Origin: a phage
DNA length: 64,000 nucleotides
Reading direction: 5' to 3' (one strand)
Sequence record: PZ452578.1
Shown: piece after piece, positions 23,367 through 29,553 of the stretch
How positions within the stretch are numbered: the stretch's first letter is position 1
Layout: each line of letters begins with the position of its first letter
Translations under genes and position numbers: made by a program
Notes under the pieces: generated by a model
Database searches by the model: none
What the model was told of the DNA's origin: nothing
Seen by the model: the letters and a program-made list of their open reading frames with translations, nothing else

Positions 23367-23567
23367 ATGGTACAAAAATTAATGGCACTTGTTAATGCCA
23401 TCAAAGGTAATAAAAAACGTATAGCTTTTACTATTTCTGCTATGGTAGGAATTTTACTCTGGAACTTTATTTTATCACCTGTTGCAATTGCACATGGTAT
23501 TAATATTCCAGTAGTTACTCTTGATACATTTGTAGATTTAGCATTTGCTTTAGTTGGGTTAATTTAA
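23367..23567 (+). CDS. small membrane protein (66 aa), plus strand
   Basis: ORF track; AAGGAGG 4 nt upstream of ATG; two hydrophobic segments. Confidence 0.5.
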   Translation: MVQKLMALVNAIKGNKKRIAFTISAMVGILLWNFILSPVAIAHGINIPVVTLDTFVDLAFALVGLI

Positions 23568-24592
23568 ATCTTAGCATATTTAGATAGCCGCATTTTAGCC
23601 ATCAACCCCTGTGCAATATTATTTTTCATATATTCCATAATTTGTTCAGGGGTTGCACCTTCCTTTCTAATCATATCATTAACATCTTTTGATTTCCAGG
23701 GAGATTTATCCCAAAACATAACCCTTTCTCCTGCATCAACTAATTTAGTCATTCGTTTGATAGTGTCAGGGTGACGAGGTTCATTATCTAAAACCCACAC
23801 TCGTCTATCTTTAAATGGAACAACTTCTAAGTCTAATTGACCACCCGTAATAGCTATACCATTTTCAATAAAAAGTGAATCTATAGGTCCTTCTAGAACA
23901 TATACATCACCATCTTTAACCCGTTCGACACCATAGATTTTTGTTGCTTCAGGATAAGCTTTGATAGTGATATATTTTTGGGGAGCATCTTTCTTTAATG
24001 CACGTCCTTGAAAAGACTCGGCTTTTCCATTAGCATTATAAATTGGAATAACAAGACGAGGCTCAGGTATTTCCTTTTTATATGTTCCCGGTGCTATGCT
24101 ATTAACCAATTTAGGCCATTCGGTTGTAAACCAAAGATATTTCCATTTATCCTTTGGAATACAACGAGCTTTTACATATTTTATAATTGGATGGTCTTCC
24201 GCCAGTTTATCTAATCGAACACATGACGGAAGAGATTTAATTATTTTCTTCTCAGGTTGTTTAGGAAGTTCTTTAGGTTTTTCTACTGGACGACTTTTAC
24301 CTTTTTCTTTTCTTATTTCAAAGATATACTCACGATATAAATCAGGTTCAAACTCCTTTAAATATATTCCGATTGGTGCATGATAGTTACAGTTATAACA
24401 ATGAATATTTCCTTCATTATTATCACCATAATACCATCCACGAGCTTTATTCTGGTCGGTTTTTGAATCTCCACAAACAGGGCATCTAAACCGCAATTTA
24501 AAAGTTGAACTATTATTTACTTGTGTGAATTTAGGTAAATGAGCTAATGCACGATACGCAAACTCATTATCAATCCAAGGTATTGATGACAT
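23564..24592 (-). CDS. 61: gp61 DNA primase
   Basis: ORF track 342 aa; zinc-ribbon CPVCGDSKTD...CYNC; matches T4 gp61 length. Confidence 0.9.
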   Translation of the reverse strand: MSSIPWIDNEFAYRALAHLPKFTQVNNSSTFKLRFRCPVCGDSKTDQNKARGWYYGDNNEGNIHCYNCNYHAPIGIYLKEFEPDLYREYIFEIRKEKGKSRPVEKPKELPKQPEKKIIKSLPSCVRLDKLAEDHPIIKYVKARCIPKDKWKYLWFTTEWPKLVNSIAPGTYKKEIPEPRLVIPIYNANGKAESFQGRALKKDAPQKYITIKAYPEATKIYGVERVKDGDVYVLEGPIDSLFIENGIAITGGQLDLEVVPFKDRRVWVLDNEPRHPDTIKRMTKLVDAGERVMFWDKSPWKSKDVNDMIRKEGATPEQIMEYMKNNIAQGLMAKMRLSKYAKI

Positions 24593-24594
24593 TT

Positions 24595-24759
24595 TTAATC
24601 TTCTTTTTCTTTAGATTCCTCTTTTTTCTTTTTAGGAATCTGTTCAGGACCTTTATTTACTACAGCGCCTGACGTTGTTCCAGTAGAGATATTTTCAGGA
24701 TTACCACCTGAATCTCCAGCGACCATATCTTCTTTAATAAATTCTTTATATGTTTTCAT
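24595..24759 (-). CDS. hypothetical protein (54 aa, Lys/Glu-rich)
   Basis: Own translation MKTYKEFIKEDMVAGDSGGNPENISTGTTSG...; start lies at end of repeat copy A. Confidence 0.4.
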   Translation of the reverse strand: MKTYKEFIKEDMVAGDSGGNPENISTGTTSGAVVNKGPEQIPKKKKEESKEKED

Positions 24760-24805
24760 ATTAACCTCTATTCATAAAAGCATTAAAAATTTGGTCATCA
24801 ATAGA
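24757..24805. repeat. Direct repeat copy A (~49 bp) spanning a gene 3' end, RBS and next start codon
   Basis: catattaacctctattcataaaagcattaaaaatttggtcatcaataga; 2 differences from copy B. Confidence 0.8.
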
Positions 24806-25117
24806 TGGAATAGCAACCTTTTCGGCATCATTTAGCAAATCATTAATTTCATCGGATAGCATAACACATGTACCTTTATTTCCTGTAATTGTTACTGCGC
24901 AATTACGAACGTTTTCTTTATTAAATTTTAGGTTAATATTTTCGTAATGAAAATCCTTTAATGCTGAATATATTTTTAAAATAAAATTGTCTTTTACTAC
25001 AATAAACCCAACCTCACTATTAAAACGCGGTTCATGGAAACTGTAATAAACCTTTTCATCTATAAAATCGTATGAAATTTTTTCCATTTTTAAATATGAA
25101 AATTCAGAACTATACAT
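24761..25117 (-). CDS. hypothetical protein (118 aa)
   Basis: ORF track; similar to C-terminal half of next ORF. Confidence 0.6.
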   Translation of the reverse strand: MYSSEFSYLKMEKISYDFIDEKVYYSFHEPRFNSEVGFIVVKDNFILKIYSALKDFHYENINLKFNKENVRNCAVTITGNKGTCVMLSDEINDLLNDAEKVAIPSIDDQIFNAFMNRG

Positions 25118-25162
25118 ATTAACCTTTATTCATAAAAGCATTAAAATTTGGTCATCAATAGA
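25115..25162. repeat. Direct repeat copy B (~48 bp)
   Basis: catattaacctttattcataaaagcattaaaatttggtcatcaataga. Confidence 0.8.
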
Positions 25163-25744
25163 AACATTTACTTTAGACTGTTTTTCTGATGGTAATTCAT
25201 ATCCACATATTACAATTTTGTGATCAATATCAAAATACACAGAAGCAATATGATTAATGATATTTTCAGTGAAGTCTAAATCAACATCAATATCTTTTTG
25301 ACCAAAGCCCAAAGGATAAATAATGCGAGTAATTCGATTATCTTTAACAAAGATTCCACCGACATACTCTGTACTGCGTTTAAAGTCTACACGCCGACGA
25401 AATGAAAAATATTCAGGCTCTTTATGAGCTCGGCTCATAGGACACAACGAGTAACTAGAATAAGAGATGTCAAATCCTACGCCTTCGATATGAGCCAAAG
25501 TGTCATGATTAAACCAATTATAATCGTACGCCAAATCCATTAGATTATAATATGTAAAAGGCACCGGATTAACATCATTAGTCACAAGCATGTAATTAGC
25601 AACTGCTATAATTTCATTGTTTTTAACGAATACAAACCGTGATTGATGCGAATGACCTGGACCCGCGTTTTCACGATTAATGATATAACACTGGGCACCT
25701 TTATATTTGTATGTATCTTTGCACTTGTGCATTTGATAGAGCAT
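25130..25744 (-). CDS. hypothetical protein (204 aa)
   Basis: ORF track. Confidence 0.6.
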   Translation of the reverse strand: MLYQMHKCKDTYKYKGAQCYIINRENAGPGHSHQSRFVFVKNNEIIAVANYMLVTNDVNPVPFTYYNLMDLAYDYNWFNHDTLAHIEGVGFDISYSSYSLCPMSRAHKEPEYFSFRRRVDFKRSTEYVGGIFVKDNRITRIIYPLGFGQKDIDVDLDFTENIINHIASVYFDIDHKIVICGYELPSEKQSKVNVSIDDQILMLL

Positions 25745-26037
25745 TATTCACCTACCACTTCAGCGATGATATTTTTGTTATTAAAGTTTTTATCGCAATA
25801 CAGAACATAATTATACTGCATTACACCACCAGACTTAAGCTGTTTTTGCACTTCAGCTTTCATTTCAGGACGATCGCGCTCAACGATATTCATAATATCT
25901 GCTTCAATTTGAGTTTCAACCTCAGTCTGATCCGCAGTCATAGACCATTCGCACAAATCTTTATCATAACCTGCCACAGCAGGCTGAGCAGCACAAGAAG
26001 CTAAAGCAAAAATTGTGGCAAAGATAAATTTTTTCAT
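25744..26037 (-). CDS. sp: Spackle periplasmic protein
   Basis: ORF track 97 aa with signal peptide; matches T4 Sp size and position. Confidence 0.8.
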   Translation of the reverse strand: MKKFIFATIFALASCAAQPAVAGYDKDLCEWSMTADQTEVETQIEADIMNIVERDRPEMKAEVQKQLKSGGVMQYNYVLYCDKNFNNKNIIAEVVGE

Positions 26038-26097
26038 GATAATCTCCTCAGTAGTTTATGTTTATATAGTATCTCAATTTCCAACAAAAGTAAACAG

Positions 26098-26397
26098 TTA
26101 TTTTAAAACTTCTGCGTAATCACATGTTACAAACTGTTTCTCTAGCTTGACGATTTTACGAAAGTATCTTTTGCATTGGCGAATCTGCCGCTTCGTAGGG
26201 CGAACAGCAAACTTAATAAATTCCACTCGACCAAATGGAGGGCTTTCTTCTGCTGGAATATCTAACACCAATTCCCACGTATCTGCAATAAGTGCTTTGA
26301 ATTGCGTATTTTTCCTGACGTTATACGGAGTAGGTTTAAATAAAACAATATGCATATTATCCTCGGCAATCCACTTCACATACTTTCTTGTCATCAA
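26098..26397 (-). CDS. hypothetical protein (99 aa) at the 61.4 position
   Basis: ORF track; basic protein between sp and dmd. Confidence 0.6.
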   Translation of the reverse strand: MMTRKYVKWIAEDNMHIVLFKPTPYNVRKNTQFKALIADTWELVLDIPAEESPPFGRVEFIKFAVRPTKRQIRQCKRYFRKIVKLEKQFVTCDYAEVLK

Positions 26398-26539
26398 TGA
26401 AAGCTTTAACTAATGCTTTATTAACTTCAGCATACTGAGTAGTAGCCCATTGAACGTCATCTTTCATCATTGTGGTTTCTTTAGTAAACATGCTTTCATT
26501 CTTAAACCACCCCATAAAAACTACCTTTACCAATTCCAT
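26357..26539 (-). CDS. dmd: Dmd antitoxin (discriminator of mRNA degradation)
   Basis: ORF track 60 aa; position directly upstream of gene 41; sequence MELVKVVFMGWFK as recalled. Confidence 0.75.
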   Translation of the reverse strand: MELVKVVFMGWFKNESMFTKETTMMKDDVQWATTQYAEVNKALVKAFIDDKKVCEVDCRG

Positions 26540-26568
26540 AACAATCTCCTCATTTAACCAACAAGACT

Positions 26569-26605
26569 ACTATACCATAGTCTCGTCAGCTTGTAAACTA
26601 AAATT
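26569..26605 (-). promoter_or_regulatory. T4-type early promoter (GTTTAC / TGgTATAGT) overlapping gene 41 3' end
   Basis: Plus actata 26569-26574, gtaaac 26593-26598. Confidence 0.6.
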
Positions 26606-28025
26606 TTAATTCATTCGCCAAAGCATCTAACTGAGCTCGAGTGGATTCATTTCTTTGATAGCGATTCTGTTCAGCCTGAATCTGCTGTGAACCTGCTACT
26701 TCACTCACTTCAGTTGGAGTAGAATCTTGTTCAATTTCTACCCATTTCTGATTTCCCTTTTGAACACCCATCAAAAACTTATTCCATTTGTTCTTATCGC
26801 CATATCGTGATTTGATTTGCTTAATGAGTTGTTGTTCAGCAGCTGCTAGCTCCTCGGTTTCAATGACCGCAAGCATAAAATCAGCTGTTGCTGGAAGACC
26901 GGCAGATTCTGCGATATCACTCATGTTAACATCAGAAGAATCCCAAGCTTGTTTACCAACCTGTGCTGCAGTCCAAAGAACAGTTTCGGTTTCAACAGCC
27001 AGAGCACGCAATTCCTCTGCAATAGCTTTAACAGTTGTGTAACTATTTTCTGAATAAACTCTAATGCGGCAAGATTTACAAATACCTAGATAATCGACAA
27101 TAATGATTGTTGGAACAAAATTCTTCTTGAGCTTCAATTCGTTTAAAAGTGATCGAAATGTATTAGCATCTGCTCCACCAGTAGGATACTGTTTAACGAT
27201 TAAACGACCAAGAGTAGATTTCTCACGCCATTTTTCCATTTTTCCTTTATACTCAGCGTAAGAAATATGCCCATCATCAATGTCATCAAGAGAAACATCG
27301 AGCATATTAGCGTCAATACGTTTAGCACAGACTTCTTCTGCCATTTCCATGGAGATATAAAGAACGTTATGTCCGAGCTGTAAATAATCTGCTGCTAATG
27401 AACAAAGTCCTAATGATTTACCAACGTTAACGCCAGCCATTAAAACGTTCAGTGTTCCAGTCTCAGCTCCGCCTTTAGTAATTTTGTTTAGAATTCTGAG
27501 TTTAAATGGAACCTTACGAGCTTTATTCATATAAGATAGCCAACGTGCTTCATAGTCATCCATCCAATCATGGCCAACGTAGCTATCAAATGAAATTGAT
27601 AATGCTTGGCGCATGATGTCAGGAATAGCACCTACATCTGGCATTTTCTTATTTCGTTTTTCTGGAGGAAGCTCAGCATTAGTTTGAATTTCGATTATTT
27701 TAGACGTAGCATTAAACATCGCCCTTTGCTGAACATATTTTTCTGTTTCTTTTACTAACCAGCTGTGGTCTTCTGGAGAATCAGCCAGTTTTGAAATAAG
27801 TGTTTTTACACCAGAATATTCTGTTTCAGTAAATGAACTATTTTCTAATGCAACATTTAACGCATTAATAGATGGAACGCTATGATACTCATTGACATGA
27901 GATTTAATTAATTTGAATGTATTTTTAGCTGGACCACTTTCAAAATATTCTGAATCCATATATGGCCAAACTTTTGAAAAATAAGCTTGATCAAATATGA
28001 GATGAGAAAGAATAATTTCTACCAC
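26598..28025 (-). CDS. 41: gp41 replicative DNA helicase (DnaB-like)
   Basis: ORF track 475 aa; Walker A GVNVGKS; matches T4 gp41 length. Confidence 0.95.
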   Translation of the reverse strand: MVEIILSHLIFDQAYFSKVWPYMDSEYFESGPAKNTFKLIKSHVNEYHSVPSINALNVALENSSFTETEYSGVKTLISKLADSPEDHSWLVKETEKYVQQRAMFNATSKIIEIQTNAELPPEKRNKKMPDVGAIPDIMRQALSISFDSYVGHDWMDDYEARWLSYMNKARKVPFKLRILNKITKGGAETGTLNVLMAGVNVGKSLGLCSLAADYLQLGHNVLYISMEMAEEVCAKRIDANMLDVSLDDIDDGHISYAEYKGKMEKWREKSTLGRLIVKQYPTGGADANTFRSLLNELKLKKNFVPTIIIVDYLGICKSCRIRVYSENSYTTVKAIAEELRALAVETETVLWTAAQVGKQAWDSSDVNMSDIAESAGLPATADFMLAVIETEELAAAEQQLIKQIKSRYGDKNKWNKFLMGVQKGNQKWVEIEQDSTPTEVSEVAGSQQIQAEQNRYQRNESTRAQLDALANELKF

Positions 28026-28034
28026 ACTTACTCC

Positions 28035-28379
28035 TTAAAAGAATTTAAATTTTTTCTTTGACCTTTTATTAAATGCATCTTGTAGTTGCATTGTAATACA
28101 TTTTTCTACATGAGGAGCTAACTCAGCTTTTCTTTCTTGGTCAAGAACAGCAAAGTCCATTACAACCTTTCCATCAACCCAATCTAATTTTGTCACATAC
28201 ACTATATGTGTAGAACCATCTTCTAGTTTAATGATAATCTCCTGGATAACATTTTCCATAGCGGATTTAATTATCTTAAGAGATTCATTAAAAAGACGTT
28301 CTTTTCTTTCTTCTTCCCCCTCCGAAGAGGGGGATTCATCGATAATTTCTAGGTCTAAATCTAAATCATCTTTATTCAT
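28035..28379 (-). CDS. 40: gp40-position protein (~114 aa from internal ATG)
   Basis: ORF track; position between 41 and uvsX. Confidence 0.6.
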   Translation of the reverse strand: MNKDDLDLDLEIIDESPSSEGEEERKERLFNESLKIIKSAMENVIQEIIIKLEDGSTHIVYVTKLDWVDGKVVMDFAVLDQERKAELAPHVEKCITMQLQDAFNKRSKKKFKFF

Positions 28380-29553
28380 TAAATTCTTCCATATCACTTA
28401 ACTGTTCTAGGTCAGTTTCTAAATCAGCAGCTGATTTACTTTTACTTTCTGGAGATTTAAATTTTTCAACCTTTGAGTTAATTAATTCATCGACTTCAGC
28501 TTCAACAATTTCATTACTATCAATAGCACCTAACTGATAAGCACGTTTAATAGCATCTCGGAATGGTTGATGCTTAAATAAAGGACCCCAGAATGTAGTG
28601 CAGTTGGTATCTTTTGCACGCCAAGATTTTTCTTCGCGAATCATCTCGCCGGTTTCTTCATCAAGAAATTCACGAGCATACCAGCCATTTTTAGGTTTTA
28701 CAACAAATCCTAATTCTAGAGCCATATCTAACAATCCAGAATAAGGATCGATACCACCGTCAAATTTAACATCAATAAAGAATTTACTTTTTTCTTTAAC
28801 GGTACGAGATTTTTCTACATTTAGAACAAATTGATACCCCTGAAGATCAGAACCATCTTTAATCTGGCGTTTACCGATAATGAATACAGTATCAGCCGAA
28901 TACATTACGCCTGTACCACCTGTCATCACGGTTTTACTAAACATTTCAATTGTTTCAATTGTATGGTTAACCGCAACACATGGAATATTTTTAATGCTAA
29001 AATAAGGAGTAACAATACGGAATAATGACTTCAGTGATTTAGCACGAGTCATATCTGCCACAGATTTTTCATTCAAGGCATCTTCCGTTTCTTTCTTAGA
29101 AGCCATATTACCGATTGAGTCGATGAATACAATAACCTTTTCACCACGCTCAATAGCTTCAAGCTGGTTCACCATATCAATTTTCAGCTGTTCAACTGAC
29201 TGGATTGGCGTATGAATTACACGTTCCGGGTCAACTCCCATGGATCGCAAATAAGCTGGAGTAATACCAAATTCGCTATCATAGAATAGACAAACCGCGT
29301 CAGGATATTTGTTTAAATATGCCGCAACCATAGTCAAAGACATATTTGATTTAAAGTGTTTAGAAGGCCCTGCGAAAATAGTTAAACCAGACTGCATGCC
29401 GCCATCAATCGCACCAGAAATAGCAATATTAAGCATTGGGATTTTTGTACGGATTACATCCTTTTCATTAAAGAATTTAGATGTAGTCAGTTCAGCAGTC
29501 ATTTTAGAAGTGGAAGCTTTAATCAAACGGGATTTTAAATCTGCAATAGACAT
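28372..29553 (-). CDS. uvsX: UvsX recombinase (RecA-like)
   Basis: ORF track 393 aa; matches T4 UvsX sequence as recalled. Confidence 0.95.
   Translation of the reverse strand: MSIADLKSRLIKASTSKMTAELTTSKFFNEKDVIRTKIPMLNIAISGAIDGGMQSGLTIFAGPSKHFKSNMSLTMVAAYLNKYPDAVCLFYDSEFGITPAYLRSMGVDPERVIHTPIQSVEQLKIDMVNQLEAIERGEKVIVFIDSIGNMASKKETEDALNEKSVADMTRAKSLKSLFRIVTPYFSIKNIPCVAVNHTIETIEMFSKTVMTGGTGVMYSADTVFIIGKRQIKDGSDLQGYQFVLNVEKSRTVKEKSKFFIDVKFDGGIDPYSGLLDMALELGFVVKPKNGWYAREFLDEETGEMIREEKSWRAKDTNCTTFWGPLFKHQPFRDAIKRAYQLGAIDSNEIVEAEVDELINSKVEKFKSPESKSKSAADLETDLEQLSDMEEFNE

Follow-up and report, generated by a model that had tools for sequence, protein, structure and literature searches.

A Tequatrovirus locus with the features of the dmd-tifA early operon, encoding orthologues of inhibitors of two different toxins

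We analysed a 64,000-nucleotide stretch of phage DNA (PZ452578.1; hereafter the window), which comes from a T4-like phage (Tequatrovirus). A 1-kb piece spanning dmd and gene 61.4 matches 503 phage records at 90-99% identity, with T4 at 98.1%, and a 24-kb piece is approximately 96-97% identical to Escherichia and Shigella T4-like phages. The genes and features between uvsX and the primase gene 61 are listed below; the minus strand is the coding strand of all genes examined (23564-29553).

28372-29553, minus strand: uvsX
28035-28397, minus strand: gene 40
26598-28025, minus strand: gene 41 (helicase)
26569-26597, minus strand: predicted sigma-70 early-type promoter of dmd-tifA, TTTACA-17-TATAGT
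26546-26551, minus strand: dmd Shine-Dalgarno sequence GAGGAG, 6 nt before the ATG at 26539, read from the sequence
26357-26539, minus strand: dmd (old name 61.5), 60-aa ORF for an acidic protein, identified by Pfam, PHROG, T4/T2 identity and a PDB match
26098-26397, minus strand: maximal 99-aa ORF over tifA
26356-26397, minus strand: upstream extension of the 99-aa ORF (TTG 26397 or ATG 26394), running over the dmd 3' end in a different frame
26360-26364, minus strand: tifA Shine-Dalgarno sequence GAGGA, within the last two dmd codons and 4 nt before the tifA ATG
26098-26355, minus strand: tifA (old name 61.4), 85-aa basic protein, ToxN inhibitory factor A, identified by homology and charge
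25744-26037, minus strand: sp (spackle)
25130-25744, minus strand: AdfA/61.2 orthologue, 204 aa
24761-25117, minus strand: extra 118-aa ORF
24595-24759, minus strand: 61.1
23564-24592, minus strand: primase gene 61

Apart from the extra 118-aa gene, this order is that of the T4 reference record (41-dmd-61.4-sp-61.2-61.1-61).

The first gene after the helicase gene encodes Dmd. The 60-aa ORF is covered end to end by the Pfam Dmd family (PF17587; E=1.8e-45; 153.5 bits, cut-off 27; residues 1-60 aligned to profile positions 1-60) and matches PHROG 2102 (5.2e-39). Its product is identical to T2 Dmd at 60 of 60 positions and to T4 Dmd at 59 of 60, and its sequence matches PDB 5HY3 chain B (E=9.6e-37), from the solved LsoA-Dmd complex. 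Window and T4 Dmd share their length, their place after gene 41, their promoter and their ribosome-binding site; they differ only by I22T, a substitution common to T2 and part of the sampled Tequatrovirus operons. PMC8266594 and the references it cites describe RnlA/RnlB as a toxin-antitoxin system serving as phage defence, in which RnlA degrades late-gene mRNA when T4 dmd is mutated. They present LsoA as a plasmid homologue of RnlA and state that Dmd inhibits both toxins directly, lodged in the groove that separates the HEPN domain from the TBP2 (NRD) domain. By homology, the window dmd product would be a phage-encoded antitoxin against RnlA and LsoA, two endoribonuclease toxins of the HEPN type. 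Window Dmd, whose I22T form is exactly that of T2, may be expected to inhibit both.

The neighbouring gene occupies the 61.4 position and encodes the orthologue of T4 gp61.4, now called TifA. The last 85 residues of the 99-aa ORF are identical to the T4 protein at 84 of 85 positions (I83V), to the T2 protein at 84 of 85 and to the T6 protein at 83 of 85. They match Pfam DUF7279 (PF23945; E=1.8e-20, 73 bits against a cut-off of 24.5), and the protein is basic (pI 9.8), with ten K/R against one D/E in residues 52-73. The initial annotation had matched the 60-aa ORF to T4 Dmd and had described its neighbour as a basic 99-aa protein at the position of 61.4. Comparison with the two T4 proteins bears out both assignments as well as the basic character, but the real gene is 85 aa long, from ATG 26355. 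NCBIfam holds no model for Dmd, TifA, the 118-aa ORF or gp61.1. TifA orthologues are mostly annotated as 'hypothetical protein' and once, in phage BW-1, as 'DNA polymerase', while Pfam still lists the family as DUF7279 although its function was published in 2022-2023; database annotation thus lags behind the literature. A 100% identical TifA also occurs in a 'Pseudomonas phage' record (PV654520.1), where a T4-like coliphage gene suggests a problem with the host label.

Upstream of dmd, the minus strand reads AAATTT-TAG-TTTACA-(17 nt)-TATAGT. The -35 hexamer TTTACA (26597-26592) directly follows the TAG stop of gene 41 (26600-26598) and is itself followed, after a 17-nt spacer, by a TG-extended -10 hexamer TATAGT (26574-26569). 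The G of the stop codon completes GTTTAC, which we take to be the T4 early -35 consensus, and the last codons of gene 41 form an A/T-rich stretch upstream of it. This is the top promoter-like site in 25600-27000, with 10 of 12 matches plus the TG. Promoter-like matches in this A/T-rich region are not enriched (7 versus 4.3 +/- 1.8 in shuffles), so the scan by itself proves little. The hexamers are those of T4, with one substitution in the spacer, and the site is conserved in all ten sampled Tequatrovirus operons. Consensus match and conservation together point to an early promoter of the sigma-70 type, at the gene 41 stop where the initial annotation had put it. In the literature, too, dmd and 61.4 make up a two-gene locus with an early T4 promoter upstream of dmd, and a further promoter is mentioned downstream of tifA (PMC9391042). 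In the window, a weaker match, GTTTAC...TACTAT, stands immediately past the end of tifA. Site scanning and spacer folding found neither an intrinsic terminator nor significant structure between tifA and sp, and read-through from tifA into sp is therefore likely.

Within the operon, the dmd stop codon and the tifA start codon at 26355 are separated by a single nucleotide (TAA-T-ATG). The same 1-nt junction is found in T4 and in the RB69-like phage AV117, and together with the Shine-Dalgarno sequence inside dmd it is compatible with translational coupling. By tblastn, 801 records of the phage collection contain Dmd and 676 contain TifA. Scans for TifA relatives recovered five loci in IMG/VR and four in JGI metagenomes, too few for a population-level survey of alleles.

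The function of 61.4 was established experimentally in T4. When T4 was evolved on E. coli carrying toxIN, the phages acquired tandem amplifications of exactly the dmd-61.4 locus (Srikant, Guegler and Laub, eLife 2022, PMC9391042). With 61.4 alone expressed, T4 again formed plaques on toxIN cells and ToxN toxicity was relieved; overexpressed Dmd did not rescue T4 on these cells (PMC9391042). Deletion of the 61.4 start codon (DeltaATG) abolished the effect, while recoded genes and genes with ablated ToxN sites retained it (PMC9391042), which identifies the protein, not the RNA, as the active agent. The gene was renamed tifA for its inhibition of the type III toxin ToxN, and ToxN co-precipitates with TifA (PMC9391042). 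T4 tifA mutants lose approximately 100-fold in plaquing on chromosomal toxIN and nothing on a catalytically dead control; native single-copy tifA is insufficient against plasmid-borne toxIN (PMC9391042). The TifA proteins of T2, T6 and RB69, all encoded beside dmd, also inhibit ToxN, RB69's best (PMC9391042). A later study showed binding of TifA to RNA as well as to ToxN (Guegler et al., NAR 2023, PMC10853763). The initial annotation had tentatively given 61.4 a part in countering a toxin-antitoxin defence, and these two studies confirm it. Its wording of a 'candidate' counter-defence pair is too weak for a function demonstrated in T4.

The residues that matter in T4 TifA are retained in the window protein. 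RNA binding, ToxN interaction and rescue require the P53-T54 cap and K55, R56 and R59 (PMC10853763). All five, a Pro-Thr helix cap followed by a basic helix, are present in window TifA, and the PTKRQIR motif is conserved in the T4, RB69-like, JS98 and PM2 homologues. Position 41, in a variable loop, tunes the strength of inhibition, with F41S and F41H improving T4 TifA (PMC10853763); the window carries F41 (codon TTT), as does T4. Window TifA differs from the T4, T2 and T6 proteins only at positions 70, 82 and 83. It pairs E82 with V83, which places it one tail residue away from T4 and one from T2. These positions fall in a C-terminal tail that seems evolutionarily dispensable, since the 70-aa RB69-type TifA lacks it entirely. 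Some Tequatrovirus TifA proteins also diverge or end after about residue 76 with a different C-terminal tail (L010 1501-1728; Shfl2, RB5, BP32). RB69 TifA (Mosigvirus) belongs to the same DUF7279 family, lies beside dmd and has the PTKRQIRQ-KR-FRK helix, but it is only about 57% identical to the window protein and has H41 instead of F41, a residue that correlates with stronger inhibition.

[quoted passage not shown] Our single-sequence AlphaFold2 prediction reached a mean pLDDT of 44.4, too low for a comparison with that model, and only the helix at 55-72 attained moderate confidence. A PDB sequence search returned no match to TifA at E<=1, and the literature searched yielded no structural study of TifA dated 2024 or later. 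Because the RNA-binding residues and F41 are kept and the differences are confined to the seemingly dispensable tail, window TifA is expected to be functional and of T4-type strength. The phage would probably overcome chromosomal toxIN yet be restricted by plasmid-borne toxIN, as T4, T2 and T6 are, because its F41 is the weaker T4-type allele and not S41 or H41.

Could inhibition of E. coli ToxN be a weak side activity of a protein whose main role is general RNA binding or the inhibition of another RNase or defence system? Several published observations fit this idea. Plasmid-borne toxIN still restricts wild-type T4, T2 and T6, and T4-type TifA rescues ToxN toxicity only partly (PMC9391042); TifA needs no ToxN to bind RNA or even DNA, and none of six more distant homologues inhibited any ToxN/TenpN toxin tested (PMC10853763). 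The family's persistence in Pfam under a DUF name can be read in the same way. However, the plaquing defect of T4 tifA mutants is specific to active chromosomal toxIN, and ToxN is physically recovered with TifA. Moreover, ToxN escape mutants and TifA position-41 variants map to the predicted interface, and inhibition is confined to ToxN homologues close to ToxNEc, with at least 81% similarity (PMC10853763). We therefore consider a different main target unlikely and retain ToxN as the target of TifA.

A second possibility concerns the transcript itself. GAAAU is the cleavage motif of E. coli ToxN, and the only amino-acid differences between the window operon and T4, Dmd I22T (GAA-ATC to GAA-ACC) and TifA I83V (GAA-ATT to GAA-GTT), each coincide with the absence of one such motif (26473-26477 and 26106-26110, minus strand). 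The dmd-tifA coding mRNA thus contains no GAAAU in the window and two in T4. If this reflected a cis-acting escape layer on top of the TifA protein, the counter-defence transcript would itself resist ToxN. Two of the eight substitutions relative to T4 in 581 nt strike the ten motif bases, for a p of about 0.008 that is naive and post hoc. In the ten sampled Tequatrovirus operons, the tifA site reads GAA-GTT in eight and GAA-ATT, the motif, in T4 only, so the tifA motif appears to have been gained in T4. The dmd site reads GAAATC in five, GAAACC in four and GAGATC in one. A synonymous-codon shuffle of the window operon gave a null mean of 0.24 motifs against zero observed, with P(<=observed)=0.78. 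Selective purging of GAAAU from the operon was rejected, as neither the ten-operon sample nor the shuffle supports it, and we regard a ToxN-resistant transcript as very unlikely. GAAAT counts over the entire window are 246 for the minus strand and 118 for the plus strand. The coding strand is thus well supplied with potential ToxN sites, a skew that probably reflects codon and amino-acid composition (GAA-ATx, Glu-Ile).

The length of the tifA product deserves comment, as the frame is open from 26397 and initiation within dmd, at either TTG 26397 or the ATG at 26394, would add 13-14 residues to the N-terminus. Several observations make such a 99-aa product highly improbable. No Shine-Dalgarno sequence could be read before either codon, whereas GAGGA stands 4 nt before ATG 26355, and the PHROG 2375 profile (3.7e-38) begins to align at residue 15 of the 99-aa ORF. 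The T4, T2 and T6 records annotate tifA as 258 nt, the literature gives gp61.4 as 85 aa, and the published functional constructs have that length and lose function upon DeltaATG (PMC9391042). In AV117 the protein starts with M at the 1-nt junction, while in JS98 dmd and 61.4 lie 141 nt apart without an N-terminal extension, which indicates that the extension is not conserved. We judge ATG 26355 to be the true start and 99 aa to be a longest-ORF artefact, arising because the frame happens to stay open inside dmd. The maximal ORF of gene 40 probably overshoots its true start as well, at 120 aa from a GTG compared with 345 nt (114 aa) in the T4 annotation.

The initial annotation also called dmd and its neighbour a pair. 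The term stands for adjoining, co-transcribed genes, but not for cooperation, since in T4 TifA alone suffices against toxIN and Dmd has no effect on it. A two-component system, in which both proteins are needed against one target or one regulates the other, might be suspected from genes that almost abut, share a transcript and remain neighbours in Tequatrovirus, Mosigvirus (AV117) and Dhakavirus (JS98), and whose targets are both endoribonucleases of toxin-antitoxin systems. However, TifA neutralizes ToxN in uninfected cells without Dmd, and the adjacency is not obligatory. In RB49 (locus L003, 1495-1885), dmd lies in a different genomic neighbourhood and is followed by a hydrophobic 65-aa peptide in place of a DUF7279 gene. 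In Pectobacterium phage PM2 (locus L004, 1438-1683), the 41-61 interval holds a DUF7279 gene but no annotated dmd. These arrangements show that dmd and tifA are separable. We also considered the small gene after RB49 dmd as a cryptic TifA and rejected it, since its product lacks a DUF7279 match and resembles a hydrophobic peptide. Dmd is acidic, TifA is basic, and their protein families are unrelated. Cooperation is already contradicted for T4 and is scarcely credible here; according to the T4 literature, dmd and tifA form a pair only as an operon and not as a two-component system.

The locus might also work at the RNA level, by encoding a decoy that resembles toxI, like that of Pectobacterium phage PhiTE, or by letting the tifA mRNA compete for ToxN as a substrate. 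Either mode can be dismissed almost with certainty. T4 tifA mRNA does carry a GAAAU near its 3' end, but I83V removes this motif in the window, whose dmd-tifA coding sequence contains none. The lack of tandem repeats in 26098-26597 (Tandem Repeats Finder) and of an Rfam match (scan at a permissive threshold) excludes a toxI-like decoy, and the start-codon and recoding experiments refute an RNA mechanism for T4.

Directly downstream of tifA lie spackle and AdfA. The window AdfA is full-length and 97% identical to T4 gp61.2, the anti-DarT factor. Like Dmd and TifA, it is a small-protein inhibitor of a toxin-antitoxin defence encoded in the 41-61 interval, two genes downstream of tifA. It differs from them in that its protein family is unrelated, its target is the DNA ADP-ribosyltransferase DarT, and it lies outside the dmd-tifA transcription unit as the literature defines it. 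The 41-61 interval thus combines genes for three separate anti-toxin-antitoxin inhibitors (Dmd, TifA and AdfA) with a superinfection-exclusion gene. Between 61.1 and adfA, the window also carries a 118-aa gene that is absent from T4 and present in T2, where it is annotated as '61.2', and in approximately 300 Tequatrovirus records. It matches the Pfam AdfA family (1.8e-8) and is 28% identical over 96 aa to the window's own AdfA; these matches mark it as a distant paralogue of AdfA's C-terminal half. The short form seems to be the only one in T2, while the window has both.

Taken together, the region is very probably the dmd-tifA early operon of Tequatrovirus, encoding two inhibitors of different toxins, and we saw nothing in the sequence that speaks against this reading. 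The operon itself is documented here by gene order, near-identity to T4, a promoter-like site, two Shine-Dalgarno sequences and the 1-nt junction. The mechanism comes from published work on the T4, T2, T6 and RB69 orthologues, and by sequence both proteins should be functional in this phage. Host RNA polymerase would transcribe dmd and tifA right after infection from the early promoter at the gene 41 stop. Dmd would inhibit RnlA and LsoA, while TifA would bind ToxN and, via its basic C-terminal helix, RNA. ToxN would then be held in a large ribonucleoprotein assembly, chiefly on 16S rRNA, and phage transcripts would be spared. The two proteins would act independently on different toxins, with only the transcript in common.

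The locus, its promoter, its proteins and their mechanisms are already known from work published between 1989 and 2023; the window represents a close relative of T4 with ordinary alleles, and no new biology is claimed. In summary, the phage would carry the standard T-even kit of Dmd against RnlA/LsoA, TifA against ToxN and AdfA against DarT. Recognizing this anti-toxin kit may help to predict host range, for example in phage-therapy candidates, and the F41 allele of TifA would predict sensitivity to highly expressed toxIN.
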